NCBI GenBank assembly: GCA_039583515.1
Contig: JAVKST010000001.1
Location: 1 to 55,228, forward strand
Source of the DNA: Gaiellaceae bacterium
Lineage (GTDB): Bacteria > Actinomycetota > Thermoleophilia > Gaiellales > Gaiellaceae
Direction: 5' to 3'
DNA: 55,228 nucleotides
Shown here: piece after piece, positions 19,307 to 55,148 of the stretch
Numbering within the stretch: position 1 is the first letter of the stretch
Layout of the letters: each line of letters opens with the position of its first letter
Program-made: the position numbers and the translations under genes
The notes under the pieces: generated by a model
Databases searched by the model: none
Told to the model about the DNA's origin: nothing
The model's input: only the letters and a program-made list of their open reading frames with translations

Positions 19307-19394
19307 CGCAGCCCCTGCGGGAGCATCGGCGGTTCGACCACCGTGCAGTCGCACCTCGTGCGCGGTGGCGATTTACAGCGTCTTCTTCAACGAG

Positions 19395-19467
19395 TGGGCC
19401 CGCCTGGATTCGAACCAGGGACCTACGGATTATGAGTCCGCTGCTCTGACCGCTGAGCTACGGGCCC
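19395..19467 (-). tRNA. tRNA-Met (anticodon CAT; elongator type, or possibly a tRNA-Ile2 lysidine substrate)
   Basis: The minus-strand sequence GGGCCCGTAGCTCAGCGGTCAGAGCAGCGGACTCATAATCCGTAGGTCCCTGGTTCGAATCCAGGCGGGCCCA folds as a cloverleaf. It has a 7-bp acceptor, GCTC/GAGC D stem, CTCATAA anticodon loop and TTCGAAT T loop. CCA is not encoded. Confidence 0.9.
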
Positions 19468-39054: not shown

Positions 39055-39469
39055 CGTCGCCCTCGAACTCGAGCACCGCGTCTCCGAACGCCGCCGGCAC
39101 CGCCTGGCCGCGCCGCTGCGCGAGGTCGACGTAGACCAGCGTCTGGTGTGCGGTGACCATCAGCACGTCGTCGGCCACGCGGTAGGCGGCGAAGGCGAAC
39201 GTCACGCTCGTCCTGCCGAGGCGCGACACGCGTGTCCAGACCTCGATCTCGTCGTCGAAGACGGCCGGCGCGAAGTACTCGACGTCGTTTGCGCGCATCA
39301 CGAAGTCGCCGGCCTCTCCGCGCCGCTGCAGCAGCCCTAGCTTGCGCAGGTACTCGACGCGCGCCAGGTCGAAGTACGGGTTGTAGCGGCCGTAGTAGAC
39401 GATCCCCTGGGCGTCGGTGTCGGAGAAGCCGACCCGCGTCCGGGCCGAGAACTTGAACGGCGGCTTCAT
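39041..39469 (-). CDS. acyl-CoA thioesterase, 4HBT/YbgC hotdog family
   Basis: RVGFSDTDAQGIVYYGRYNPYFDLARVEYLR with the catalytic Asp region, and a hotdog-fold pattern. 142 aa. Confidence 0.8.
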   Translation of the reverse strand: MKPPFKFSARTRVGFSDTDAQGIVYYGRYNPYFDLARVEYLRKLGLLQRRGEAGDFVMRANDVEYFAPAVFDDEIEVWTRVSRLGRTSVTFAFAAYRVADDVLMVTAHQTLVYVDLAQRRGQAVPAAFGDAVLEFEGDDVER

Positions 39470-40821
39470 CCCCGGATGAGCGCGAGCACCTCGTCCCGCT
39501 TCCGCTCCATCAGCTCCTGCGACATCGCTTCGAGGTTCAACCGCAGCAGCGGCTCCGTATTCGACGGCCGCACGTTGAAGTGCCAGTCGTCGAAGTCGAC
39601 GGAGACCCCGTCGCGATGCGAGACCCGCCCGTCGGCGTAGCGCTCCTTCAGCTCCTGCAGCTTGAGTGGCACGTCCGCGACCGGCGTGTTGACCTCGCCG
39701 GTGAGGAAGTAGCGCCCGCGCAGCGGCGCCAGGATCTCCGACAGCTTGCGGCCCTTCTTCGAGATCAGCTCGAGCATGAGCAGGAAGGGGACGACGCCCG
39801 TGTCGGCCTGGCTGAAGTCGCGGAAGTAGTAGTGGCCGGAAACCTCCCCGGCGAAGGCCGCCTCCTCCTTTCGCATGCGCGCCTTGATGAACGCATGCCC
39901 GACGCGCTCGACGAGCGGGGTGCCGCCGAGCCGTTCGACCGTGTCGGCGACGGCGCGGCTGGCGCGCACGTCGTAGATGACCTTCGCGCCCGGCTCCTTC
40001 TCCAGCACGCTCTCGGCGAAGAGCGCCGTGACGAAGTCGCCGGGGACGAACTCGCCCGTGTCGTCGACGAAGAAGCAGCGGTCGGCGTCGCCGTCGAACG
40101 CGACGCCGAGGTCGGCCCTCTCCTCGAGCGTCTTGCGCACGATGAACTCGCGGTTCTCCGGCAGGAGCGGGTTCGGCTCGTGGTTGGGGAACGTGCCGTC
40201 CGGGTCGAAGTAGCAGCGGACGGCGTCGACCGGGAGCCGCTCCAGGACCGGCGGCAGCATCGCTCCCGCCATTCCGTTCGCGGCGTCGATCACGACCCGC
40301 AACGGCCCGATCGCGGCCGTGTCCACGAACGACATCACCCGGTCGACGTAGGCCGGCCAGATGTCGTGCGGCTGGACCGTCCCTTCGGGACGTGACCGGT
40401 AGCTGCTACCGGTCGTGTCCGCTTCGGCCAGGGCGCGGTCGCGAACCTCGAGCAGGCCGGACTCGCCGCCGACGGGCAGCGCGCCGCGGCGGACGATCTT
40501 CATGCCGGTGTACTCCTTCGGGTTGTGCGAGGCCGTGACCATCACGCCGCCCTCGAGCTCGAGCGAGCCGACGGCGAAGTAGAGCATCTCGGTCCCTACG
40601 AGCCCGAGGTCGAGCACGTCGGCGCCCGCCCCCGCCGCTCCGCGCACGAGCGCCTCCTGCATCGCCGGCGACGAGACGCGCATGTCGCGGCCGACCGCGA
40701 TCCGGCGCGGCTCGAACTCGTCGACGTAGGCGCGGCCGATCGCCTCCGCACCGGCCTCGTCGAGCTCGGACTGGTAGATGCCGCGGACGTCGTACGCCTT
40801 GAAGACCTTCGGGTCGAGCAC
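39466..40821 (-). CDS. phosphomannomutase/phosphoglucomutase
   Basis: FKAYDVRG, active-site TASHNP, metal loop FDGDADR, GEVSGHYYF, RPSNTEP. Confidence 0.92.
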   Translation of the reverse strand: MLDPKVFKAYDVRGIYQSELDEAGAEAIGRAYVDEFEPRRIAVGRDMRVSSPAMQEALVRGAAGAGADVLDLGLVGTEMLYFAVGSLELEGGVMVTASHNPKEYTGMKIVRRGALPVGGESGLLEVRDRALAEADTTGSSYRSRPEGTVQPHDIWPAYVDRVMSFVDTAAIGPLRVVIDAANGMAGAMLPPVLERLPVDAVRCYFDPDGTFPNHEPNPLLPENREFIVRKTLEERADLGVAFDGDADRCFFVDDTGEFVPGDFVTALFAESVLEKEPGAKVIYDVRASRAVADTVERLGGTPLVERVGHAFIKARMRKEEAAFAGEVSGHYYFRDFSQADTGVVPFLLMLELISKKGRKLSEILAPLRGRYFLTGEVNTPVADVPLKLQELKERYADGRVSHRDGVSVDFDDWHFNVRPSNTEPLLRLNLEAMSQELMERKRDEVLALIRG

Positions 40822-40865: not shown

Positions 40866-43802
40866 ATGGTGGAGCGGAAGCTCGCGACCGTCCTCTTCGT
40901 CGACCTCGTCGACTCGACAGGCCTGCTGACGGACGCCGACCCCGAGGTCGTGCGGCGGCGGGTGGGACGCTTCTTCGACCAGGTCTCGCACTGCATCGTC
41001 ACGCACGGCGGCACGGTCGAGAAGTTCGCGGGCGACGCGGTGATGGCAGCCTTCGGCGTGCCCCTCCAGCACGAGGACGACGCCGAGCGCGCCGTCCGTG
41101 CGGCGCTCGCGACACTCGACCGCGTGCACGAGCTCGGTCTCGAGGCGCGGATCGGCATCGAGTCGGGCGAGGTCGTCGCAGACGAATCCGACTCGACGTT
41201 CGCGACCGGCGAGGCGGTGAACCTCGCGGCGCGCCTCGAGCAGCGGGCCGGCCCGAACGAGATCCTCGTCGGCCCCACGACCGCGCGCCTCGTCCGCGAC
41301 CTCGTCGACCTCGAGCCGCTCGAGCCGCTCGAGGTGCGCGGCTGGCGGGAGCCGCTGGACGTGAGCCGGGTCCTCCGCGTGCGCGACCCGGGCCGGCCGC
41401 TCCGGCACCTCTCGGCGCCCCTCGTCGGGCGCGACTCCGAGCTCGAGCTGCTCGACAACGCGTTCGCGCGCACGGTGCGCGACCGCCGCGCGACGCTCGT
41501 CACGCTCTACGGCGAGCCCGGCGTCGGCAAGAGCCGCCTGGCCCGCGAGTTCGTGGAGGCGATCGAGGGCGCCACGGTGCTCAAGGGGCGCTGCCTGCCG
41601 TACGGCGAGGGCGTCACGTACTGGCCGATCGCAGAGATGGTGAAGGCCTCGGCGGGGATCTCGGACGACGACCCGCTCGACCGCGCGTTCGAGAAGCTCC
41701 GCGACACGTGCGAGGACGAGGCCGTCGCCGACCTGCTCGGTCTCGCCGCCGGTGTGCTGGAGGCGGTCGAGGGGGAGCGGAGCCAGCAGGAGATCGCCTG
41801 GGCCGTCCGCTCGTGGGCCGAGCAGCTGGCCGATGCGCAGCCGCTCGTCCTCGTATTCGAGGACGTCCACTGGGGCGAGGAGCCGCTGCTCGAGCTGGTC
41901 GAGCACCTGGCCGGCTTCGTCAGGACGGCGCCGCTCCTGCTCGTTTGCCTCGCGCGGCCCGAGCTGCTCGACGTCCGCCCCGGCTGGGGCGGCGGGCGCG
42001 TCCGCGCGGTCACGCTCGAGCTGGAGGCGCTGCCCGACGAGGAGAGCGGTCAGCTGGTGGCGGCGCTGGCGGACGAGGTCGGAGTCTCCGTCGACGCGGC
42101 GGCGGTGCTGGCGAAGGCGGAGGGGAACCCACTCTTCGTCGAGGAGACGATCCGCGCGCTGGCCGAGCGCCCGGACGCCCGGCAGGACCGCATCCCCGAC
42201 ACGGTGCAGGCGCTGATCGCGGCGCGCATCGACCGGCTCGCGCCGGAGCAGCGCCGCCTTTTGCAGCGCGCGTCGATCATGGGGCGCGTGTTCGTCCGCG
42301 GCGCGCTCGCACACCTCTCGACGGACGTCGAGGACGTGGACGCCGCGCTCGAGGAGCTCCTGCTGCGCGACTTCGTGCTGCCCGAGGAGCGGTCGAGCAT
42401 CAGCGGCGAGCAGGCGTACAAGTTCAAGCACGTGCTGATCCGGGAGGTCGCGTACGGCGGGCTGTCGAAGGGCTCGCGGGCCGACCTCCACCTGCTCTTC
42501 GCGGACTGGCTCGGCCGGCGCGCCGGCGAGGAGCTCGTCGAGATCCGCGCCTTCCACCTCGACCAGGCCGCCCGGCTGCTCGCCGAGCTCGACGGCGCCG
42601 CTCCGGCAGAGCTCGCGGAAGAGGCGGCGGGGGCACTCGAGCGGGCCGGCCGTAGAGCGCTGTCGCGCGAGTCGTTCCGCAGCGCGCGCAAGCTCCTCGT
42701 CCGGGCGGTCGAGCTCGCGCCGACGCTCGAGCGCCGCTACTTCGCGGCCCGTGCTGCGTGGCGGCTCGGGGACATGCCCGCGGTGATCGTCGAGATGGAG
42801 GTCGTCGCCTCGACGGCCGAGCGGGAGGGCGAGCACCGGCTGCAGGGCCGCGCGCTCACGGCGCTGGCGGAGGCCGTCCTCAACCAGCGCGCCGACGCGC
42901 CGGCTGCGGGCGAGCTCGCCGAGCGGGCCGTCGAGGTGCTGGCGGACGACGAGCCGGAGGTCCGCTTCGAGGCGTTCCGCGCCGCCGCCGGCGTCGCGTC
43001 GTGGTTGAGCGACGACGCCGCCTTCGAGCGCTGGGCGAAGCTCGCGCTCGAGGCTGCTCGCCTTGCGAACCGGAAGGACCAGGAGATCCAGATCACGATG
43101 GCGCTCGCCGAGAGCTACACCCACCGCCTCGACCTCGCCGACGCCGAGCCGCTCGTCGACCGCGTCGCCGAGCTCGCCCACGAGAGCGGCAGCATCGTCG
43201 GCCGCGCGCTCGCCGCGATGGCACGCGGCGGGCTCGAGAACTGGCGTGGGAACGACGCCGAGGCGGAGGCGGCCTATGTCGTCGCGCGCGACCTCTACCG
43301 CGAGATCGGGAACACCCAGTCGGAGGCGTACTCGACGCTGATGATCGGTCGCCTCGCGGCCGCCCAGGGAGGCATCGCGCGGGCCGAGAACGTGCTCCTC
43401 GACGCGGTGCGGATGATGAAGGGGATCAACGACCGCGCCCACCTCGCCGAGGCGCAGCGCTCGCTTGCCGACCTCTACGTCGACCTCGGCCGCCTCGAGG
43501 AGGCCGAGCGCTACGCCCTCGAGGCGCGAGAGTCGGTCGGCCCGGAAGACCGCGTCTCGACCTCGACGACGAAGCTCTCGCTCGCGCTCGTTCGCGCCGC
43601 GCAGGGCCGCGACGCCGAGGCGGACGAGCTCATGGGCGACGCGGTGGAGGATCTGCGTCTCTTCGGTCTCCGCGCGGTGGAGCGCTGGGCGCTCCGGCGC
43701 GTCATCGAGTTCCACCGCTCGCGCGCACGCGACGAAGACGTCGCCCGCTACGAGGCGCGGCTCGCGGAGCTCGCGCCGAGCAGCACCGTGCCGATCGCCT
43801 GA
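40866..43802 (+). CDS. class III adenylate/guanylate cyclase fused to a STAND-type P-loop NTPase and TPR-like repeats (978 aa)
   Basis: Cyclase motifs ATVLFVDLVDSTG, VEKFAGDAVMAAFG, RIGIESGEVV and GEAVNLAARLE. Walker A GEPGVGKSRL and Walker B LVLVFEDVHW. Long helical repeat C-terminus with no HTH recognised. Confidence 0.85.
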   Translation: MVERKLATVLFVDLVDSTGLLTDADPEVVRRRVGRFFDQVSHCIVTHGGTVEKFAGDAVMAAFGVPLQHEDDAERAVRAALATLDRVHELGLEARIGIESGEVVADESDSTFATGEAVNLAARLEQRAGPNEILVGPTTARLVRDLVDLEPLEPLEVRGWREPLDVSRVLRVRDPGRPLRHLSAPLVGRDSELELLDNAFARTVRDRRATLVTLYGEPGVGKSRLAREFVEAIEGATVLKGRCLPYGEGVTYWPIAEMVKASAGISDDDPLDRAFEKLRDTCEDEAVADLLGLAAGVLEAVEGERSQQEIAWAVRSWAEQLADAQPLVLVFEDVHWGEEPLLELVEHLAGFVRTAPLLLVCLARPELLDVRPGWGGGRVRAVTLELEALPDEESGQLVAALADEVGVSVDAAAVLAKAEGNPLFVEETIRALAERPDARQDRIPDTVQALIAARIDRLAPEQRRLLQRASIMGRVFVRGALAHLSTDVEDVDAALEELLLRDFVLPEERSSISGEQAYKFKHVLIREVAYGGLSKGSRADLHLLFADWLGRRAGEELVEIRAFHLDQAARLLAELDGAAPAELAEEAAGALERAGRRALSRESFRSARKLLVRAVELAPTLERRYFAARAAWRLGDMPAVIVEMEVVASTAEREGEHRLQGRALTALAEAVLNQRADAPAAGELAERAVEVLADDEPEVRFEAFRAAAGVASWLSDDAAFERWAKLALEAARLANRKDQEIQITMALAESYTHRLDLADAEPLVDRVAELAHESGSIVGRALAAMARGGLENWRGNDAEAEAAYVVARDLYREIGNTQSEAYSTLMIGRLAAAQGGIARAENVLLDAVRMMKGINDRAHLAEAQRSLADLYVDLGRLEEAERYALEARESVGPEDRVSTSTTKLSLALVRAAQGRDAEADELMGDAVEDLRLFGLRAVERWALRRVIEFHRSRARDEDVARYEARLAELAPSSTVPIA

Positions 43803-44893: not shown

Positions 44894-45301
44894 GTGGGAG
44901 CCAGTCCTGCGCGGCTCGTGATCGCGCTGTCGGTGGCGGCGGCGCTGGCGGTCTTCGTCGTCTACACCGCGCTCGCCGGCAACGGCATCGCGCAGCTCAC
45001 GCCGAGCACCGTCGCCGGCCACGCGGGGGACGTGTCGCTCGTCGGCGCCGTCGTCGGCCCGGTCTCGGGCGACGCGTACACGAAGCACGGCTTGCGGTTC
45101 CGGCTGCAGGACATCGGCGCCAAGAGCTCCGAGCGCGTCCTCGTCGACTACACCGGCGGCGTCCCCGACCTGTTCAAGGTCGGGCGGCACGTCGTGATCG
45201 AGGGGACGATGCGCAACGGCGTCTTCGTCGCGAAGCCCGGCTCGCTCGTGACGAAGTGCCCGTCGAAGTACGCGCCGGCCAAGAGCTCCTCGAACGCCTG
45301 A
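44894..45301 (+). CDS. ccmE: cytochrome c maturation heme chaperone CcmE, Cys-type (CxxxY) variant
   Basis: N-terminal anchor LVIALSVAAALAVFVVYTAL. OB-fold core RFRLQD...VLVDYTGGVPDLFKVGRHVVIEGTM. The heme-binding segment reads LVTKCPSKYAP where canonical CcmE has LAKHDENYxP. Confidence 0.8.
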   Translation: MGASPARLVIALSVAAALAVFVVYTALAGNGIAQLTPSTVAGHAGDVSLVGAVVGPVSGDAYTKHGLRFRLQDIGAKSSERVLVDYTGGVPDLFKVGRHVVIEGTMRNGVFVAKPGSLVTKCPSKYAPAKSSSNA

Positions 45302-47256
45302 TGGCTCCGCTCGGGCGCGCCGCGCTCATTCTCGCGTTCGGCCTCGTCGTATACGCTCTCGCCGCCGGCTCGTATGCGGCGTGGAAGCGCCGCCGCCGCC
45401 TCGCGCTCTCGGCGCAGAACGCGCTGCTCGCCGCGTTCCCGGCGACGGTGGTGGCTGCCATCGTCCTGTTCGTCGCGCTTGGGCGCCGCGACATGACGTT
45501 CGCCTACGTCGCGCAGCACACGAGCCACAAGCTCCCGCTCGGTTACGCGCTCTCCGCCTTCTGGGGAGGCCAGGAGGGCTCCCTCCTGCTCTGGCTCCTG
45601 ATCCTCACCGGCTATGCCGCGCTCGCCGTCTGGCTCAACCGGCGCTCCCGCGAGCTGATGGCGTGGGTGGTGCCCGTCTTCGGTCTCGTCGCCTGCTTCT
45701 TCGCCTTCATGCTCTGCTTCGTCTCGAGCCCGTTCAACGTCCAGCCGGCCCCGGCGGACGGCGCCGGGATGGTGCCGAGCCTCCAGAACCCGTACATGCT
45801 CGCGCACCCGCCGATGCTCTATCTCGGCTACGTCGGCCTGACCGTGCCGTTCGCGTTCGCGATGGGCGCGCTCCTCTCCGGCCGCACCGACGAGCGCTGG
45901 ATCGTCGCCACGCGCCGCTGGACGCTCGCCGCGTGGATGTTCCTCGGCGTCGGCCAGCTGATCGGCTCCCACTGGGCGTACGTCGAGATCGGCTGGGGCG
46001 GCTACTACGCGTGGGATCCGGTGGAGAACGCGGCGCTCATGCCGTGGCTCGCGGCGACGGCGTTCCTGCACTCGGTGATGATCCAGGAGAAGCGCGGGAT
46101 GCTGAAGGTCTGGAACATGGTGCTCGTCGCGCTTGCGTTCAACCTCTCGCTCTTCGGCACCTTCATCACGCGCTCGGGCGTCATCGACTCGATCCACTCG
46201 TTCGCGCAGAGCCCGATCGGGGGCTGGTTCCTCGGCTTCCTCGGGCTGATGGTCGGCTTCTCGGTCGCGCTCATCTACCTGCGGCTGCCGCTCCTGCGGA
46301 CGAAGACGCGGCTCGAGTCGCTCGTCTCGCGCGAGGCGACCTTCCTCTACAACAACCTCCTCCTCGTCGCGCTCGCGCTGACGATCCTCTGGGGCGTCCT
46401 CTATCCGATCCTCTCCCAGGCCGTGCGCGGGGAGACGCGCTCGGTCTCGAAGCCCTACTACGACTTCTTCCTCCACACCTTCGGACTGCCGCTCTTGCTC
46501 CTGATGGGGCTCGGGCCGCTCGTCGCCTGGCGGCGCGCCTCGCTGCGTTCGCTCGGGAAGACGTTCCTGATCCCATTCGCAGTCGCGATCGTCACGGGAG
46601 GCGTGCTCCTCGGCCTAGGCTTCGGCAGCTCGAGGCCGGGCCTGCTCGCGTACACGTTCTCGGCGTTCGTCGGCGCCTCGATCGTGCTCGAGTTCGTGCG
46701 CGGACGCGCCGCGGCGGGCGGGATCCTCCGCCTCGTCTCCCGCAACCGCCGCCGCTACGGCGGCTACGTCGTCCATGCGGCGGTCGTCCTCCTCGCGATC
46801 GGGATCGCCGGCTCGAGCGCGTATCAGACGGTGCGCGAACGGGTGCTCCGGCCAGGGCAGTCGATCGAGGCGGCGGGCTACACGGCGACCTATCGGACGT
46901 CGACCGCGGTGAAAGGGCCGAACTACACCGGCGTCCGCGCGCTCGTCACCGTCTCCGGCCACGGTGAGCGGTTCAACCTCAATCCGGGGCTGGACGACTA
47001 CACGATCGAGGGCACCCAGCACGTCGCCTCGATCTACCACGATCCGCGCTCGCTCGGCGACGTGTTCACGCGCGTGGACCTTGCAGGAGGAGACAAGGTC
47101 GACCTGCAGGTATTCGTGAAGCCGCTGATCAACCTCATCTGGGCCGGCGGCTTCGTCTTCGTCTTCGGCGCCCTGATCGCGATGTGGCCGGACGCGGTCG
47201 AGCAGCGCCGGCTCGCCGCGCGCTACGCCGCCGGGGCGGCGCCGGTCGGGATCTAG
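45301..47256 (+). CDS. ccmF: cytochrome c heme lyase subunit CcmF
   Basis: TGATG junction with ccmE. FWGGQEGSLLLW, WWD-type motif WGGYYAWDPVENAALMPW, and about 15 TM helices. 651 aa. Confidence 0.9.
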   Translation: MAPLGRAALILAFGLVVYALAAGSYAAWKRRRRLALSAQNALLAAFPATVVAAIVLFVALGRRDMTFAYVAQHTSHKLPLGYALSAFWGGQEGSLLLWLLILTGYAALAVWLNRRSRELMAWVVPVFGLVACFFAFMLCFVSSPFNVQPAPADGAGMVPSLQNPYMLAHPPMLYLGYVGLTVPFAFAMGALLSGRTDERWIVATRRWTLAAWMFLGVGQLIGSHWAYVEIGWGGYYAWDPVENAALMPWLAATAFLHSVMIQEKRGMLKVWNMVLVALAFNLSLFGTFITRSGVIDSIHSFAQSPIGGWFLGFLGLMVGFSVALIYLRLPLLRTKTRLESLVSREATFLYNNLLLVALALTILWGVLYPILSQAVRGETRSVSKPYYDFFLHTFGLPLLLLMGLGPLVAWRRASLRSLGKTFLIPFAVAIVTGGVLLGLGFGSSRPGLLAYTFSAFVGASIVLEFVRGRAAAGGILRLVSRNRRRYGGYVVHAAVVLLAIGIAGSSAYQTVRERVLRPGQSIEAAGYTATYRTSTAVKGPNYTGVRALVTVSGHGERFNLNPGLDDYTIEGTQHVASIYHDPRSLGDVFTRVDLAGGDKVDLQVFVKPLINLIWAGGFVFVFGALIAMWPDAVEQRRLAARYAAGAAPVGI

Positions 47257-48528: not shown

Positions 48529-49080
48529 TTATTCGCCGGACGCGCGCAGGTCGACGAGCCGCAGGTCCGGCAGCTCCCGGTACCGCTCGTCGAGGTCGAA
48601 GCCGTACCCCACGTAGAGCTCGTCCGGCACCACGAAGCCGACGTAGCGGACGGGCAGGTCGTCGACGAGCCGCCGGTAGGGCCGGTCGAGGAGCGTGACG
48701 GCCGCGACCGACGTAGGGTCGCGCATCTCGAGCGTCCGGACGAGGTAGTTGAGCGTCAGCCCGGTGTCGACAACGTCCTCGACGACCAGCACGTCGCGGC
48801 CCCGCACGTCCAGGTCGAGGTCCTTGAGCACGCGAATCTGCTGGTGGCCGCCCATCCCCGCGCTGCCGTACCCCGCGAGCTCGACGAAGTCGAGTGCGTG
48901 GAGGATCGGCAGCGCCCGCGAGAGGTCGGCGACGAAGACGAGGCTGGCCTTGAGCGACGCGACGAGCACCGGCTCCAGGCCGACGTAGTCGCGGGCGATC
49001 TCCGTCCCCAGCTCCCGAACGCGCGCGGCGAGCTCCGCCGCGGAGAGGTAGATCCCCCCGATGCGCTCGTCCGCCGGCAG
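48529..49080 (-). CDS. hpt: hypoxanthine phosphoribosyltransferase (start codon uncertain)
   Basis: PRPP motif DVLVVEDVVDTGLTL, plus VGYGFDLDERYRELP. The conserved N-terminal helix IYLSAAELAARVRELGTEIARDY lies in frame upstream of the first canonical start (GTG 48969). The 5' end is set provisionally at CTG 49080. Confidence 0.8.
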   Translation of the reverse strand: MPADERIGGIYLSAAELAARVRELGTEIARDYVGLEPVLVASLKASLVFVADLSRALPILHALDFVELAGYGSAGMGGHQQIRVLKDLDLDVRGRDVLVVEDVVDTGLTLNYLVRTLEMRDPTSVAAVTLLDRPYRRLVDDLPVRYVGFVVPDELYVGYGFDLDERYRELPDLRLVDLRASGE

Positions 49081-49084
49081 ACGG

Positions 49085-49453
49085 TCAGCTGGCGAGGTCG
49101 AGGTGGAAATGCTGGGCCAGGCGCTCCAGGTCGCGCCGGTAGAAGAGCTTGATCCGCACGTCGGGATAGCGCTCGCGGAGCTTGCGCAGCTTCCGGTTCT
49201 TCCGGGTGACGAGCGACTGCTTCATGACCGTGATCTCGACGTAGAGGTCCTGCTCGGGGAGGTAGAAGTCGGGCGTAAACGCCTCGCACACGCGCCCGCT
49301 CTCGTCCTGCTCGAGCACGAACGTCCGCGGCTCGTATTCCCATGGGACGCCGTAGTAGTCCAGCACCTTCGCGCACTCGAGCTCCGCGGGGCTGGCGAAG
49401 CGCGGCGGCTCCGACCCGCGATATGCCCGGAACACCGGGAGACCCAGCTCCAT
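49085..49453 (-). CDS. hypothetical protein with a possible PD-(D/E)XK-like nuclease motif
   Basis: 122 aa from ATG 49453 (alternative ATG 49477). FTPDFYLPEQDLYVEITVMK resembles a PD...(D/E)xK core. Basic C-terminus KNRKLRKLRERY. High GC3. Confidence 0.45.
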   Translation of the reverse strand: MELGLPVFRAYRGSEPPRFASPAELECAKVLDYYGVPWEYEPRTFVLEQDESGRVCEAFTPDFYLPEQDLYVEITVMKQSLVTRKNRKLRKLRERYPDVRIKLFYRRDLERLAQHFHLDLAS

Positions 49454-49519
49454 CGCCGGTGACGGTACCGGGCGCATCGGACGCCGAAACGCGGGCTGCG
49501 ATCTTCTAGGGTCCACGGC

Positions 49520-50305
49520 ATGTTCCGGATCGTGCAGCTGTCCGACCTGCACTGCGGGCAGCAGTTCTTCCTGCCGCAGCTGCTCGAGCGCGCGATCGCC
49601 GAGGTGAACGAGCTCTCTCCGGACGTCGTGATCGTCTCGGGCGACCTCACCTCCAACGGCTTCAAGGACGAGTACGTGCTGGCCCGCGACTACCTGAACC
49701 GCGTCGAATGCGACTCGATCGTCGTCATCCCGGGGAACCACGACTCGCGCAACGTCGGCTACGTCCACTTCGAGGAGCTGTTCGGGGCGCGCAACTCGGT
49801 GCTGCGCAGGGACGGCGTCACCATCGTCGCGGTCGACTCGAGCGAGCCCGACCTGGACAACGGCCAGATCGGCCGCGGCCGCTACCGCTGGATCGAGGAG
49901 CAGTTCCAGGAGGAGCGCGCGGACCTTCGCGTCTTCGTGCTCCACCATCACCTGCTGCCGGTGCCCGGGACCGGCCGCGAGCGGAACATCGTCCACGACG
50001 CAGGCGACACGCTCGAGTGCCTGCAGCGGGCGGACGTCGACCTCGTCCTCTCCGGTCACAAGCACGTCCCCTACGCGTGGCGGCTCGAGAACCTCTTCGT
50101 CGTCAACGCCGGCACGGTGTCGTCGTCGCGGCTGCGCGGCAACGGCCGCCCCTGCTACAACGTCGTCGAGGTCGAGGGGACGCACGTCGACGTCTGGCGC
50201 CGGTACCCGTTCCACGGGCAGGAGCGGATCATCCAGTTCTCGACCGACACGAAGACCTACGAGAAGTACACCGCGCGCATCGAGGACGAGGTGCGGCCGG
50301 CGTGA
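49520..50305 (+). CDS. calcineurin-like metallophosphoesterase
   Basis: All five motifs are present: SDLHCG, SGDLT, PGNHDS, LHHHL and SGHKH. 261 aa. First gene of the four-gene overlapping operon. Confidence 0.85.
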   Translation: MFRIVQLSDLHCGQQFFLPQLLERAIAEVNELSPDVVIVSGDLTSNGFKDEYVLARDYLNRVECDSIVVIPGNHDSRNVGYVHFEELFGARNSVLRRDGVTIVAVDSSEPDLDNGQIGRGRYRWIEEQFQEERADLRVFVLHHHLLPVPGTGRERNIVHDAGDTLECLQRADVDLVLSGHKHVPYAWRLENLFVVNAGTVSSSRLRGNGRPCYNVVEVEGTHVDVWRRYPFHGQERIIQFSTDTKTYEKYTARIEDEVRPA

Positions 50306-51477
50306 GAGCCGTCGTGCTCATCGACGGCGAGCACCACCCGCCGGTGGTGCGCGACGCGCTCGCCGCGCTGCCGTACGAGGTCGTCGGGGCGCTGCTCGCC
50401 GGCGGCACGGAGAAGCTCACGGGCGACGCGGACTACGGCGTGCCGCTCGTGGACAGGCTGGACGGAGTCGAGGCGGAGGTCGTCGTCGACCTCTCGGACG
50501 AGCCGGTGCTCGGGCCGCGCGAGCGGTTCCTCTGGGCCTCGCGCGCGCTCGCGCTCGGCCTCCCCTACGTCGGGGCCGACTTCCGCTTCGACCCGCCGCC
50601 GCTCCATCCCGTCGAGGTTCCGTCGCTGGCGGTGATCGGCACCGGCAAGCGAGTCGGCAAGACGGCCGTGGCCGGGCACGTCGCGCGCCTGCTCGCCGAG
50701 GATAGGCGGGTCGTCGTGGTGGCGATGGGCCGCGGCGGCCCTGGCGAGCCGGAGCTCGTGGCGTCGCCGCCGTCACTCGACGACCTGCTCGCGCTCGCGC
50801 GCGCGGGACGCCACGCCGCCTCCGACCATCTCGAGACGGCGGCGCTCGCCGGGGTCCCGACCGTCGGCTGCCGCCGCGCGGGCGGCGGCCTCGCCGGCGC
50901 GACCTTCCACTCCAACGTGCTCGAGGGAGCTGCGGTCGCCGGCGAGCTCGATCCCGAGCTCCTGCTCTTCGACGGCAGCGGCGCGGCCGTGCCTCCCGTC
51001 GCGGCCGATGCGCGGATCCTCGTCACGAACGGCGCGCACGACATCCGCGCCGGCCTCAACGCCTACCGCGTCCTCGTCTCCGACCTCGTCGTCGACACCG
51101 GCGGCGCCGACCGCGACGCCATTGCCGCTGTCGCGGACATCCCGGTCGTGAGCGCCGAGCTGCGGCTGCGCCCGGCAGCGGCCCTGCGCGGCCGCCGCAC
51201 CGCCGTCTTCACGACCGGCCCGGCGCCGACCGGGCATCTCGACGCGGAGGTCGTCCACGTCTCGCGCAACCTCGCCCGGCGCGACGCCGTGCGCGAGGAG
51301 CTCGAGCATGTCGAGGCGGACGTCTATCTCGTGGAGCTCAAGGCGGCCGCGATCGACGTCGTCGCCGAGGCCGCCCTCTCGCGGGGCGCGCAGCTGGTGC
51401 TCGCTGCCAACGACGTCGTCTCCGACGAGCTCGACGACCGGGTGCGCGACCTCGTGGCGGCGAGGAGTCTCCGGTGA
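50302..51477 (+). CDS. cpgS: cyclic 2,3-diphosphoglycerate synthetase-like P-loop protein
   Basis: GTGA overlap with the upstream stop. N-terminal VVLIDGEHHPPVVRDAL and P-loop IGTGKRVGKTAV match my recollection of the archaeal cDPG synthetase family. Its adjacency to 2-PG kinase supports the call. 391 aa. Confidence 0.6.
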   Translation: MRAVVLIDGEHHPPVVRDALAALPYEVVGALLAGGTEKLTGDADYGVPLVDRLDGVEAEVVVDLSDEPVLGPRERFLWASRALALGLPYVGADFRFDPPPLHPVEVPSLAVIGTGKRVGKTAVAGHVARLLAEDRRVVVVAMGRGGPGEPELVASPPSLDDLLALARAGRHAASDHLETAALAGVPTVGCRRAGGGLAGATFHSNVLEGAAVAGELDPELLLFDGSGAAVPPVAADARILVTNGAHDIRAGLNAYRVLVSDLVVDTGGADRDAIAAVADIPVVSAELRLRPAAALRGRRTAVFTTGPAPTGHLDAEVVHVSRNLARRDAVREELEHVEADVYLVELKAAAIDVVAEAALSRGAQLVLAANDVVSDELDDRVRDLVAARSLR

Positions 51478-52379
51478 GCAGCTCGCCGCGCAGGATCATG
51501 CCGCTGCCGCTCGGGGGCGGCGAGCTCGGGCTTCCGTACTCGCGCGGCCTGATGGCGCGGTCGCTGATGGCGGCCGGGGTCCCCGGGCACCGCGCCTACG
51601 CGCTCGCGAGCAGAGTCGGAGACGAGCTGCTCCGGCGCGGCCGCCGCGAGATCGAGCTCGAGCGCCTCGAGACGCTCGCCGTCGAGGTGCTCGGGGAGGA
51701 GCAGGGGAGCGAGACGATCCTCCGCCTGCGGCGCTACCAGCAGCTGCGCGAGCTCGACCTCCCGATCCTCGTGTTCATCGGCGGCGCGACCGGCACGGGC
51801 AAGTCGACCGTCGCGAGCGAGCTCGCATACCGCTTCGGCATCACGCGCGTCACGTCCACCGACTTCATCCGCCAGACGATGCGCGCGCTCTTCTCGGAGA
51901 TGTTCATGCCCTCGATCCACCACTCGAGCTTCGAGGCCGGCGATGCCTTCCCCGACGCCGACGACCCGCTCGAGTTCGGCTTCCTGCAACAGGCGCGGAA
52001 CGTGCTCGTCGGCGTCCGTGCGTCGTCGGAGCGCGCGCTCGAGGAGGACTGGTCGATGGTGCTCGAAGGCGTCCACCTCGTGCCCGGGATGGTCGAGCTG
52101 CCGCCGCCGGAGCTCGCGGCCTCCGCCTTCGTCGTCCTGGCGATCGGGGACGAGGAGGAGCACGCACGCCACTTCCACGCGCGGGACGAGGACTCCGAGC
52201 GGCGCGAGTCCCGCTACCTCGAGCGCTTCGGCGACATCCGCCGCCTGCAGGAGCTGCTCGTCGAGCGTGCGGTGCGGGCGGGGATGCCGGTGATCGAGAA
52301 CGACGACGCCGACGCCGCCGCGCGCACGGTCGCCGACCTCGTGCTCGACGCCGCCGACCGGGTCGGCGAGAACGCATGA
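51474..52379 (+). CDS. 2-phosphoglycerate kinase
   Basis: GTGA overlap. Full-length family pattern: LPYSRGLMARSLMAAGV..AY.LA, P-loop IGGATGTGKSTVASELAYRFGITRVTSTDFIRQTMR, HHSSFEAG, GFLQQARNV, LEGVHLVPG and YLERFGDIRRLQELL. Confidence 0.75.
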   Translation: MSSSPRRIMPLPLGGGELGLPYSRGLMARSLMAAGVPGHRAYALASRVGDELLRRGRREIELERLETLAVEVLGEEQGSETILRLRRYQQLRELDLPILVFIGGATGTGKSTVASELAYRFGITRVTSTDFIRQTMRALFSEMFMPSIHHSSFEAGDAFPDADDPLEFGFLQQARNVLVGVRASSERALEEDWSMVLEGVHLVPGMVELPPPELAASAFVVLAIGDEEEHARHFHARDEDSERRESRYLERFGDIRRLQELLVERAVRAGMPVIENDDADAAARTVADLVLDAADRVGENA

Positions 52380-53368
52380 GCGAAGACGAAGTCGCCGGGC
52401 AGGAGCGGCCGTGCCAGTGCCAGGCGTACCTGCGCGCGACCGAACGCGCCGCGCTCGTCTCCGCCCGGTGGCTGGGGCGGGCCGACGAGGACGCGGCGGA
52501 GGCGGAGGCGGCGACGGGCATGCGCGCGACCCTCGACCTCCTGCCGATCCGCGGCCGGATCGTCTTCGGCTCGCCGGAAGACTCGGGAGGGCTCACGCCG
52601 GGCGCGACCGTAGGCGCCGGCGGGACGGAGGTCGACCTCGCGCTCGACCCGCTCGAGGGCCGCGGCGTCGTCGCTCGCGGCGGCAACGGGGCGATGTCGA
52701 TGATCGCCGTCGGCGAGCCGGGCCGCTTCACGACGCTGCCCGACATCTACATGCGGAAGATGGCGGTCGGCCCCCGTGCGCGGGGCTCGATCGACCTCCT
52801 GCGTCCGGTGGGGGAGAACATCGAGGCGATCGCCGAGGCCTTCGGCCGCCGCGTGAACGACGTGACGACGATCGTGCTCGACCGGCCGCGGCATCACGAC
52901 CTGATCGAGGAGATCCGGAACGCCGGCGCGCGGATCAAGCTGATCCAGGACGGCGATGTCACGGCCGCGATCTCCGCCTCGATCCGCGGCACGAACGACC
53001 ACCTCGCGATCGGCATCGGCGGCACGCGGCAGGCGGTGCTCTCGGCGGCGGCACTGCGCTGCCTCGGCGGCGAGCTGCAGGCGCAGTTCTGGCCGACGTC
53101 GCGGCGGGAGATCGACGAGCTCCGCGAGGCGGGAATCGAGGACTACGACCGCGTCTTCCGGACCGAGGATCTCGCTCCGGGCGAGGTGATCGTCGCGGCG
53201 ACCGGCGTCTCGAACGGCGACCTGTTGCGCGGCGTCCGCTTCCTCGCCGACAGCGCCCGGACGCATTCCCTCGTCATGTGCACGCGCTGCAACTGGGTGC
53301 GCTTCGTCGACGGCATCCACTTCTTCGCGCGCGAGCGGCGCGAGGAAGTGCGGCTGCTCGGCTACTGA
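52376..53368 (+). CDS. GlpX-family (class II fructose-1,6-bisphosphatase fold) protein with atypical active-site motifs
   Basis: ATGA overlap. GlpX backbone motifs are conserved (ATERAALVSARWLGR, YMRKMAVGP, VLDRPRH, LIQDGDVTAAI, AATGVSNGDLLRGV). However GEGEKD.APML is replaced by GSPEDSGGLT, DPxEGT by DPLEGR, and GGxPEG by GGTRQA. Confidence 0.7.
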   Translation: MSEDEVAGQERPCQCQAYLRATERAALVSARWLGRADEDAAEAEAATGMRATLDLLPIRGRIVFGSPEDSGGLTPGATVGAGGTEVDLALDPLEGRGVVARGGNGAMSMIAVGEPGRFTTLPDIYMRKMAVGPRARGSIDLLRPVGENIEAIAEAFGRRVNDVTTIVLDRPRHHDLIEEIRNAGARIKLIQDGDVTAAISASIRGTNDHLAIGIGGTRQAVLSAAALRCLGGELQAQFWPTSRREIDELREAGIEDYDRVFRTEDLAPGEVIVAATGVSNGDLLRGVRFLADSARTHSLVMCTRCNWVRFVDGIHFFARERREEVRLLGY

Positions 53369-53449
53369 GCGCCACGACCCGGCCCCGGCCTTCCAATCCC
53401 CGGCAATGCGTCGTAGCATCGGGCGCAAATCGATCAGGAGAGTGAACCG

Positions 53450-54820
53450 ATGGCCGTTTCGGTGGAAGGTCTGGCAGGTGTCGTCGAAGGTCGCGTCGTC
53501 GAGGCTGGGCATGCCGAGTACGACTCCGCGCGCGGTCTCTACAACGCGATGATCGACCGGCGGCCCGCCGCGATCGCGTACTGCGCCGACGAGGCCGACG
53601 TCGCCGCGGCCGTCCTCTGGGCGAAGGAGCGCGGGATGCGGATCGCGGTGCGCTGCGGCGGGCACAACGGCGGCGGCCTCGGCAGCGTCGACGACGGGCT
53701 CGTGATCGACCTCTCCGTGCTGGACGCGGTGACGGTGGAGCCGGAGGCCAAGCTGGTCCGCGTCGGCGGCGGCGCGACGCTGAACAAGCTCGTCTCCGCG
53801 ACGCACGAGCACGGCCTGACCGTCCCCGTGGGGATCATCGGCACGACCGGCGTGGGGGGCCTCACGCTCGGCGGTGGGATGGGCCACCTCACCCGGGCGC
53901 TCGGCCTCACGATCGACAATCTCGTCGCGGCCACGGTCGTCCTCGCCGACGGATCGATCGTCCAGACCGACTCCGAGCGGGAGCCCGATCTCTTCTGGGC
54001 CCTCCGCGGCGGCGGCGGCAACTTCGGCGTCGTCACGTCGTTCTCGTTCCGCTGCCACCCCTGCACCACCGTGCTCGCCGGGCCGGTGCTCTACGACCTC
54101 GACGACGCCGGTGACCTGCTGCGCTGGTACCGCGACTTCCTGCCCGCGGCACCCGACGGGCTCAGCGGCTTCTTCGCGTTCATGACGATCCCGCCCGGGC
54201 CGCCGTTCCCGGAGGAGCTCCATCTCCGCAAGGTCTGCGGCGTGGCGTGGACGCAGATCGGCGAGGAGGAGTCGGAGGCGTTGCGCGAGGCGCGCGCCTT
54301 CGGGAGCCCGCTGCTCGACGGCGTCGCGCCGATGCCGCTTCCCGTCTGGAACTCCGCATTCGACGGCCTCTACCCGCCGGGCGACCAGTGGTACTGGCGC
54401 GGCGAGTTCGTCCGCGACATCCCGGATGAGGCCGTCGAGCGGCACGTCGAGTTCGGCAACGCGCTGCCGACGTGGAAGTCGACGATGCACCTGTATCCGG
54501 TCGACGGCGCCGCCTCACGCGTCGCAAGCGACGCGACGGCGTGGGGCTACCGCGACGCGGTCTGGTCGACGGTGTACGCCGGCGTCGACCCCGACCCGGC
54601 GAACGCCTCCAAGATCCGCGACTGGTCGATCGGCTACTCCGAGACGATCCGGCCCTACGGGCTCGGCGGCGGCTATCTGAACTTCGCGATGGAGGAGCCG
54701 GGCGACCGGGTGCGGGCGATGTACGGCCCCAACTACGACCGGCTCGCGCAGGTGAAGGCGGCGTACGACCCGGACAACGTCTTCCGCGTCAACCAGAACA
54801 TCGAGCCTGCCGCCGGGTAA
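53450..54820 (+). CDS. FAD-linked oxidase with C-terminal BBE (berberine-bridge-enzyme-like) domain
   Basis: FAD-binding PCMH pattern (IAVRCGGHNGGGLGSVDDGLVIDLS, GIIGTTGVGGLTLGGGMG). BBE tail YLNFA...YGPNYDRLAQVKAAYDPDNVFRVNQNI. AGGAGAG RBS. Confidence 0.85.
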   Translation: MAVSVEGLAGVVEGRVVEAGHAEYDSARGLYNAMIDRRPAAIAYCADEADVAAAVLWAKERGMRIAVRCGGHNGGGLGSVDDGLVIDLSVLDAVTVEPEAKLVRVGGGATLNKLVSATHEHGLTVPVGIIGTTGVGGLTLGGGMGHLTRALGLTIDNLVAATVVLADGSIVQTDSEREPDLFWALRGGGGNFGVVTSFSFRCHPCTTVLAGPVLYDLDDAGDLLRWYRDFLPAAPDGLSGFFAFMTIPPGPPFPEELHLRKVCGVAWTQIGEEESEALREARAFGSPLLDGVAPMPLPVWNSAFDGLYPPGDQWYWRGEFVRDIPDEAVERHVEFGNALPTWKSTMHLYPVDGAASRVASDATAWGYRDAVWSTVYAGVDPDPANASKIRDWSIGYSETIRPYGLGGGYLNFAMEEPGDRVRAMYGPNYDRLAQVKAAYDPDNVFRVNQNIEPAAG

Positions 54821-54848: not shown

Positions 54849-55148
54849 GTGGCGACGAAGGACGAGGTGCTCGAGGTGCTCCGGCAGGTGGAGGACCCCG
54901 AGCTGGGGATGGACATCGTCGACCTTGGCCTGCTCTACGAGGTCGAGGTCGAGGACGCGACGGTGAAGGTGACGTACAGCCTCACCTCGATGGGCTGCCC
55001 CGCCGGGCCGCTGATCGCGCAGGACATCGACGGCGCCGTGCGGCAGGTCGACGGCGTCGAGGACGTCCAGCTCGAGCTCACCTTCGACCCGCCCTGGACG
55101 CCGGACCGGATGTCCGACGACGCCAAGTTCATCCTCGGCTTCGGCTAG
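54849..55148 (+). CDS. DUF59/MIP18-family metal-sulfur cluster assembly factor
   Basis: VLEVLRQVEDPELGMDIVDLGLLY...TSMGCPAG...DPPWTPDRMS is the family signature. 99 aa. Confidence 0.85.
   Translation: MATKDEVLEVLRQVEDPELGMDIVDLGLLYEVEVEDATVKVTYSLTSMGCPAGPLIAQDIDGAVRQVDGVEDVQLELTFDPPWTPDRMSDDAKFILGFG

Follow-up and report, generated by a model that had tools for sequence, protein, structure and literature searches.

In the 55,228-nucleotide stretch of DNA analysed here (the window), which comes from a Gaiellaceae bacterium (Gaiellaceae in Gaiellales, Thermoleophilia, Actinomycetota), we identify three adjacent genes as a conserved unit that probably directs the synthesis and turnover of cyclic 2,3-diphosphoglycerate (cDPG). 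They code for a metallophosphoesterase (g1; 49520-50305, + strand, an open reading frame (ORF) of 261 aa), a homologue of cDPG synthetase (cDPGS; g2, the cpgS gene; 50302-51477, +, 391 aa ORF, GTG start) and a 2-phosphoglycerate kinase (2PGK) family protein (g3; 51474-52379, +, 301 aa ORF, GTG start). A gene for a GlpX-fold protein follows (g4; 52376-53368, +, 330 aa ORF), the four genes of 49520-53368 being numbered in the 5' to 3' direction. The conserved unit is the triad phosphoesterase-cpgS-2PGK, and g4 is, in the sample that we studied, a Gaiellales-only accessory. We favour, at a probability of roughly 0.6, the reading that the triad operon makes cDPG, that the g1 product hydrolyses it and that g4 is accessory, with the compound serving a mesophile-type lineage as a reserve or protectant.

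Conservation of the phosphoesterase-cpgS-2PGK triad

The nearest homologues of g2 are proteins from metagenome-assembled genomes (MAGs) of Gaiellaceae, with 81-88% identity. Among 1.84 billion cluster representatives searched, 254 clusters came up at an E-value of 1e-30 or better, and scanning a single genome per species placed relatives in at least 573 genomes. The pairing of g2 with g3 in a bacterium is thus no rarity; moreover, bacterial relatives are already named '(cyclic) 2,3-diphosphoglycerate synthetase' by NCBI and JGI, the named cpgS hosts including Gaiellales, Acidimicrobiales, other Actinomycetota and Bipolaricaulota. The gene-neighborhoods were compared across 80 Gaiellales loci, namely the best 80 of the at least 573 genomes, all of them Gaiellales/Thermoleophilia MAGs. 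Here g1 lies directly upstream of g2 without exception (80/80), while g3 lies directly downstream of g2 in 77/80, which is every locus long enough to show it. The gene g4 directly follows g3 in 57/70 loci and is missing from the other 13. Median identity to the window proteins is 76% for g1, 64% for g2, 57% for g3 and 77% for g4.

The linkage of the four + strand genes by stop/start overlaps, described in the sequence-only reading, is found in the window as stated there: GTGA at 50302-50305 joins g1 to g2, GTGA at 51474-51477 joins g2 to g3, and ATGA at 52376-52379 joins g3 to g4, all on the + strand and read from the sequence; a Shine-Dalgarno-like run, GAGGAG, stands ahead of g3 at 51462-51467 (+). 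Counting over the 80 Gaiellales loci and the locus of the closest relative, L001, we found a start codon at the -4 overlap position in 60/79 cases at the g1-g2 junction, in 66/77 at the g2-g3 junction and in 40 of the 59 loci with g4 at the g3-g4 junction, where 7 more have a -1 overlap. The chance rate of a -4 start is put at about 0.12-0.15, which is a rough estimate, and the counting procedure favoured such starts where present; the 4-nt overlaps are not due to chance.

Beyond the Gaiellales the linkage of g1 to cpgS recurs in at least three deep bacterial lineages; two gene orders are seen, and in one case g1 is duplicated and fused. Two low-GC bacterial contigs (L084 and L086) show the order phosphoesterase-cpgS-2PGK, with g1 orthologues 52-54% identical to that of the window. 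The top homologues of the L084 phosphoesterase are from Actinomycetota MAGs (Ca. Aquicultor, Coriobacteriia, Oleimmundimicrobium and others), and no archaeon occurs among the named matches in the top 120. The three loci that were reached via the phosphoesterase alone, from Ca. Aquicultor, a 'Firmicutes' MAG and a Coriobacteriales MAG, all (3/3) display the order phosphoesterase-cpgS-2PGK-TAL_FSA, the last gene coding for a short protein of the transaldolase/fructose-6-phosphate-aldolase family.

An independent, rearranged version of this association is seen on a Bacteroidota-like contig (L091:3260-9232; GCA_018334695.1; 35% G+C, with a Por-secretion-tail protein as neighbour), where a 5'-nucleotidase-type phosphoesterase, cpgS, 2PGK and a CBS-domain protein are followed by a 499-aa protein in which two g1-like domains (34% and 29% identity) are fused. 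The Bipolaricaulota (L082:8001-12235 and L083) have cpgS overlapping an iPGM gene. The next gene after their cpgS codes for a 304-aa protein that matches nothing in Pfam or NCBIfam, and a recognisable 2PGK is absent from the vicinity; we considered the 304-aa protein as a g3 homologue and rejected it, as it shows no similarity to g3, and in this lineage another kinase may carry out the first step. An apgM gene is found beside cpgS in L092 and about 3 kb upstream of it in L084. The company of phosphoglycerate mutase genes that cpgS keeps in three other lineages points to 2-phosphoglycerate (2-PG) or 3-phosphoglycerate as the feedstock. Beyond bacteria, a Thermococcus paralvinellae MAG (L085:4467-8171) has cpgS and 2PGK adjacent in a non-methanogenic archaeon with no adjacent phosphoesterase; about 0.4 kb upstream of the pair is a gene for a glycosyltransferase that has a Pfam MGS_GT domain, and the genes may form a cluster for a compatible solute. 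A neighbour-joining tree of cpgS, which carries no support values, is star-like, and archaeal transfer is neither shown nor denied by it.

Predicted functions of the three core proteins

The sequence-only reading had placed g2 among the cDPG synthetases, and both sequence and fold uphold this. A phmmer search of PDB sequences with g2 recovered 9sxb_A (E 1e-63, query residues 4-375) and the M. fervidus cDPGS entries 8oru/8ork (E 2.4e-62; 8oru in two stretches, residues 3-40 and 57-383). Searches of local Pfam and NCBIfam copies gave no match, and as that Pfam copy does not hold PF27272 (CpgS_N), the precomputed Pfam family of g2, family membership was set by the PDB sequences together with the fold. 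An AlphaFold (AF2) model built from an alignment of 31 diverse relatives attained a predicted local distance difference test score (pLDDT) of 95.3 and a predicted template modelling score (pTM) of 0.92, and its top Foldseek match was the substrate-bound 8ORU, with a template modelling (TM) score, given as TMq, of 0.89, followed by 8ORK (0.81); the next fold, LpxK, reached only 0.46. The protein thus shares the two-domain fold of M. fervidus cDPGS (8ORK/8ORU; Matussek 1998; De Rose 2023, PMC10690619) and of 9SXB, at 34-35% identity over the structural alignment. Like the archaeal enzymes it has the Walker A motif GTGKRxGKT with the substrate-binding Lys-Arg, the GGTEK of the N-terminal domain, the Mg-binding Asp and ELKAAA; the LIDGEHHPPV and GTGKRVGKT motifs quoted in the sequence-only reading are both present. 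Across 72 full-length representatives of the cDPGS family the motifs GGTEK, AASD[HY] and ELKAA are dominant.

Twelve residues of M. fervidus cDPGS have been named as binding 2,3-diphosphoglycerate (2,3-DPG), Mg2+ or ADP (PMC10690619), and 10 of these 12 ligand or catalytic residues are identical in g2 and conserved throughout the family. E45 and K46, which contact 2,3-DPG from the partner subunit, correspond to E37 and K38 of g2; the Walker A residues K145, R146, K149 and T150, the first two of which contact the substrate, correspond to K116, R117, K120 and T121; the Mg ligand D208 is D175, T353 is T305, and E404 and K406 are E345 and K347. The remaining two are adenosine contacts: the loop of E305 is deleted in g2, and P335 does not fall on a Pro in the alignment, a nearly invariant proline, P291, lying two residues off. 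Accordingly, g2 is a cDPG synthetase homologue, with an active site that is predicted to be intact. It differs from the M. fervidus enzyme in its setting, having a bacterial host from a mesophile-type lineage and a gene that adjoins a phosphoesterase gene and is translationally coupled to 2PGK.

The assignment of g3 to the 2PGK family is upheld. Its alignment to the family, which is that of the M. fervidus 2PGK (Lehmacher and Hensel 1994; PRK04220, COG2074), is full-length (PRK04220: E 3.5e-69, residues 17-294 on model positions 12-292 of 306), but its score of 233.5 bits falls below the equivalog cut-off of 343. A second model, PRK12337, gave E 4.6e-72 and 243.1 bits against a cut-off of 603. 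The P-loop is clear (GGATGTGKST, with AAA_33 at residues 99-137), and the N-terminal ATP-cone (PF03477) is a weak match below the cut-off (E 0.0025); this signal is likewise weak in the bacterial kinases beside cpgS and clear in the Thermococcus kinase. The g3 protein is 34-42% identical to the cpgS-adjacent kinases of other bacteria and Thermococcus, the identity to the Thermococcus 2PGK, whose gene also adjoins cpgS in T. paralvinellae, being 34%. The scores of these kinases on PRK04220 are graded, from Thermococcus (401 bits, passing the cut-off) through the other bacteria (309-341) to g3 (233), which is therefore the divergent end of a single orthologous series.

The description of g1 as a complete metallophosphoesterase was borne out: it matches PF00149 (Metallophos) with E 3.4e-21 and 77 bits against a gathering threshold of 21.5, and each of its metal motifs (DxH, GD, GNHD, HHH and GHKH) is invariant across the family alignment. 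The invariant metal ligands are D9, H11, D42, N73, H74, H142-144, H180 and H182, and eight further basic residues are invariant as well (R77, R91, R119, R153, R155, K181, R204 and R206). The nearest PDB sequences are the glycerophosphodiesterase GpdQ and the cyclic-nucleotide phosphodiesterase Rv0805 (E ~5e-9). The same two proteins are the best Foldseek matches of the AF2 model (pLDDT 82.8), with TM scores of 0.60-0.69 and 18-21% identity, values which indicate that g1 belongs to a separate subfamily. It shares with GpdQ of Enterobacter aerogenes and Rv0805, which are of the class III phosphodiesterase type, the binuclear-metal calcineurin-like fold and all metal motifs; unlike them it has invariant blocks of its own (SEPDLDxGxxGR, PVPGTGRER, DAGD and RxRG) and is strictly linked to cpgS and 2PGK. 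The loop PVPGTGRERN (residues 150-159; 49967-49996) is invariant in the family and is the least confident internal segment of the model (pLDDT ~54); on this model it may be a flexible, Arg-rich substrate lid. The top NCBIfam match of g1, an anti-phage phosphoesterase, was rejected, being partial and scoring 81 bits against a cut-off of 420. Judged by gene linkage only, g1 is most likely to be the candidate for a cDPG or 2,3-DPG hydrolase.

The GlpX-fold protein and its remodelled active site

The g4 protein belongs to the same fold family as the class II fructose-bisphosphatase (FBPase) GlpX of E. coli, M. tuberculosis as well as F. tularensis and the cyanobacterial F/SBPase: it matches PF03320 with 348.6 bits (E 3.2e-104) and the PDB entry 5A5L with E 6e-70, and on TIGR00330 its 257.7 bits are just short of the equivalog cut-off of 259.3. 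We read its sites against M. tuberculosis GlpX and the cyanobacterial F/SBPase, with the roles of GlpX active-site residues known from F. tularensis numbering (PMC10289334). As the sequence-only reading had noticed, the active site is remodelled, and this extends to the orthologues. Unlike the GlpX enzymes, g4 has Arg for the catalytic Thr, which positions the nucleophile, and Ser and Gln for two metal-ligand Glu residues. The Thr of DPxEGT (M. tuberculosis T84, F. tularensis T89) is R96 (DPLEGRG); the first Glu of GEGExDEAP (M. tuberculosis GEGEKDHAP; F. tularensis E57) is S66, in a metal loop, GSPEDSGG, that is two residues shorter and hypervariable among orthologues; and the second-site Glu of GGxPEG (M. 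tuberculosis GGTPEG; F. tularensis E214) is Q219 (GGTRQAV). R96 and R218 are new arginines where true GlpX has Thr and Pro. Still present are RPRH of the 6-phosphate pocket, DGD, which serves the sugar hydroxyls, the metal site DPxE and the tyrosine of PDxYMxK.

Among 61 syntenic orthologues the catalytic site holds Thr in none and Arg in 48, the rest having Ala, Ser, Val or Gly, and Gln in place of the second-site Glu is universal; RPRH is present in 59/61 and DGD in 49/60. The nearest 120 of 7,850 g4 homologues (E<=1e-10) give the same picture, with DPLEGRG in 110, GGTRQ in 120 and Thr at the catalytic site in none. The substitution T84A abolishes the FBPase activity of M. tuberculosis GlpX (PMC5485559). 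To judge from these residues, g4 is probably not a fructose-bisphosphatase, and the labels 'fructose-1,6-bisphosphatase II' and 'class II fructose-bisphosphatase' that JGI and NCBI give its orthologues probably represent, in the case of the Gaiellaceae homologues, a systematic over-annotation.

In the loci that do not have g4 its place is taken in several ways. Right after g3, 11 of the 13 have an ORF of about 99 aa, and in L027 and L060 this was confirmed to be the DUF59 gene; in L047 a further ORF precedes the DUF59 gene; in L039 a gene with a cyclic-nucleotide-binding domain stands at that position; and in L042 no candidate ORF was seen downstream of g3. None of the seven non-Gaiellales bacterial lineages examined has g4, and a transaldolase/FSA gene often occupies its slot. 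This TAL_FSA gene (L084:10325-10972, L087:3033-3701, L088:8225-8896, L089:8294-8956 and L090:8115-8777) follows 2PGK in five non-Gaiellales lineages, sometimes after a gap of 6-11 nt and once with a 4-nt overlap, and the TAL gene beside 2PGK is a normal TIGR00875 equivalog. It is followed by rho in L084, by rho and then rpmE in Ca. Aquicultor and the 'Firmicutes' MAG, and by rpmE, with no rho called, in the Coriobacteriales MAG.

The order tal-glpX-rho-rpmE is that of Bacillus subtilis. This raises the possibility that g4, and possibly g1, are neighbours of the cassette by history: the cassette would have been inserted at an old tal-glpX-rho-rpmE block, with a GlpX copy that is decaying or neofunctionalised and has no link to cDPG. 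The succession of TAL_FSA and rho or rpmE after 2PGK in the above loci is consistent with g4 being such a relic, as are its dispensability in 13/70 loci and the reported location of the G. occulta FBPase gene beside an aldolase gene at another locus (Gocc_1033/1034; PMC6741124). That G. occulta gene is the one hint of a second, canonical glpX in such genomes, the loci compared here spanning about 13 kb each. For g1, however, a purely historical association fails in view of its linkage to cpgS in several deep lineages and two gene orders, and for g4 the median identity of 77% and the conserved coupling to g3 argue against decay and rather suggest a neofunctionalised accessory. On balance we regard the historical explanation as a serious but somewhat less probable one, and g4 itself may be either a relic of that neighborhood or a neofunctionalised, non-catalytic accessory.

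The sequence-only reading had taken all four genes as one self-contained module of synthesis and turnover; on such a view g4 would be an active phosphatase retargeted to 2,3-DPG or cDPG or would provide a link to gluconeogenesis. The ATGA overlap of g3 and g4 in the window, the -4 or -1 translational coupling in 47/59 loci, the high conservation of g4 and its kept RPRH pocket, DGD and DPxE metal site are as such a module would have them, and the new R96 and R218 could suit a polyanionic ligand. Against it, the catalytic Thr is missing in all orthologues, the equivalent T84A enzyme is inactive, and the site varies among them (R, A, S, V, G and H), so that no new catalytic residue has taken its place; further, the GEGExDEAP loop varies greatly, and Gln stands for the second-site Glu in all of them. 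As the catalytic Thr and two metal-ligand Glu residues are replaced in every orthologue, turnover by an active g4 phosphatase is unlikely, and the absence of g4 from a fifth or so of the Gaiellales loci (13/70) and from all seven other bacterial lineages leaves three genes as the core; the four-gene module is accordingly improbable.

Proposed pathway and its meaning for the Gaiellales

We propose that the g3 product would convert 2-PG and ATP to 2,3-DPG, and that the g2 product would then convert 2,3-DPG and ATP to cDPG, ADP and Pi, closing the intramolecular pyrophosphate ring. Homology to the M. fervidus enzymes, the intact active site of g2 and the mutase neighbours supplying 2-PG point to these two steps. 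The g1 product, the obligate bacterial partner, would either reopen the ring, yielding 2,3-DPG from cDPG, or dephosphorylate 2,3-DPG, and the pool could in this way be drawn on for phosphate, carbon and possibly energy. The g4 product would be a co-expressed accessory outside the core, possibly a ligand-binding or regulatory protein. That g1 is more conserved than g2 and g3 (76% vs 64% and 57%) we count in favour of its role in the triad. The ppk-ppx operon of E. coli pairs polyphosphate kinase with exopolyphosphatase, and like the triad it thereby combines in one operon the maker and, in our case putatively, the breaker of a reserve that contains a phosphoanhydride; its protein families and product are unrelated to those of the triad, and for g1 the role of breaker is one that we infer.

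A thermoprotective role, with which the sequence-only reading had associated cDPG, does not fit this host, as its sole cultured relative, the Gaiellales species Gaiella occulta, grows best at 35-37 C; the paper on its genome makes no mention of phosphoglycerate-derived solutes (PMC6741124). With a mesophile as the sole cultured relative, a reserve or general stress protectant is likelier than a thermoprotectant, and the more plausible conjecture is that cDPG is here a phosphate and carbon reserve or a general protectant.

Several points weigh against our proposal. cDPG has been stated to be exclusive to hyperthermophilic methanogens (PMC10690619; PMC12136491), and the only cDPG hydrolase known is an activity of M. 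thermautotrophicus that was described as membrane-bound (PMC1224877), for which we found no named gene in the literature searched. The characterised proteins are all distant from g1 (best TM 0.69), so that its substrate is a guess. The g2 protein, at 391 aa, is shorter by about 45-70 aa than the archaeal cDPGS of 436-460 aa, its shortened loops including that of E305, and g3 lies well under its equivalog cut-off in a family that includes kinases for other substrates, such as mevalonate-3-phosphate 5-kinase. A synthase and a hydrolase expressed together would work to no purpose without regulation, and we identified no regulator. Finally, the strong conservation of g4 and its frequent coupling to g3 argue for a role in the operon that the proposal leaves unexplained.

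Some of these points can be turned into an alternative, in which the cassette serves a different metabolite: the end product would be 2,3-DPG itself, as a regulator or as cofactor of 2,3-BPG-dependent phosphoglycerate mutase, or the enzymes would carry out their phosphorylation and cyclisation on some other hydroxy-acid phosphate, and the phosphoesterase would be a biosynthetic phosphatase, as in the synthase/phosphatase pairs of compatible-solute synthesis. The score of g3 and the substrates of its family, the shortened Gaiellales cDPGS with its missing E305 loop and the position of the phosphoesterase gene, which is first in the operon and better conserved than the synthetic enzymes, are compatible with this, as is the fact that cDPG is not reported from any bacterium in the literature searched. 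Yet all the 2,3-DPG contacts of the M. fervidus structure (E45, K46, K145 and R146) are identical in g2, its fold matches the substrate-bound 8ORU at a TM score of 0.89, and phosphoglycerate mutase genes occur with cpgS in three other lineages, from which we consider a different product rather unlikely. A bolder version of the cDPG proposal, namely that Gaiellales and other deep Actinomycetota make cDPG at moderate temperature, that g1 is the cDPG hydrolase and that the degenerate GlpX binds 2,3-DPG or cDPG via its two new arginines and senses or buffers the pool against gluconeogenesis, is a speculation to which we give little credence as a whole.

As to the setting of the operon, the G+C content of the window is 69-74% throughout and the nearest relatives are Gaiellaceae MAGs, in agreement with the high-GC actinobacterial host expected from the sequence. 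The operon is divergent from a 124-aa ORF (49085-49459, -; no Pfam match) and the phosphoribosyltransferase gene on its far side; the ORF and the operon have a common divergent intergenic region of about 60 nt, and a 122-aa gene is called at the equivalent position in L001. A promoter and terminator consensus scan of 49000-53700 gave no match, which says little at ~72% G+C, and at Rfam gathering thresholds the whole window gave no riboswitch near the operon and one tRNA only, a tRNA-Met (CAT) at 19394-19467 (-) that is the sole Rfam/ARAGORN match. Farther upstream (36381-38594, 39466-40821 (-), 40866-43802 and 44894-47256) the context includes genes for a RelA/SpoT (p)ppGpp synthetase-hydrolase, a phosphoglucomutase/phosphomannomutase, a 978-aa signalling protein of the adenylate-cyclase/AAA/TPR type and, for cytochrome c maturation, CcmE and CcmF. 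Downstream, a FAD_binding_4/BBE oxidase gene (53450-54820) stands between g4 and a DUF59 Fe-S assembly gene (54849-55148). The oxidase gene is shared with L001, and tblastn was negative for it in the other 80 Gaiellales loci, an absence that makes it look recently inserted.

The enzyme families concerned are not new, and annotation pipelines have already put labels on the bacterial genes in thousands of MAGs. We found no description of how widely the cassette occurs in mesophile-type Actinomycetota, of its obligate partner, the phosphoesterase, or of the degenerate GlpX; nor did the literature searched contain a paper on a bacterial cDPG system, in keeping with the earlier statement that none of this architecture is known to have been characterised. 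The linked phosphoesterase is a concrete candidate for the cDPG-degrading enzyme, and the compact bacterial enzymes are candidate catalysts for the production of cDPG, which is under biotechnology development (PMC12136491). Reconstructions of gluconeogenesis or the Calvin cycle that rely on the label 'class II fructose-bisphosphatase', which thousands of Gaiellales proteins bear, may be wrong. In archaea, ancestral-state reconstructions have treated cpgS as a trait of thermophily (PMC7554672, 10.1101/240879; PMC10690619). Gaiellales and other deep Actinomycetota are abundant in soil and the subsurface, and the presence of the cassette in them means that either cDPG has a far broader role, as a reserve of phosphate, carbon or energy or in protection against desiccation or oxidative damage, or cpgS is unreliable as a marker of thermophily.

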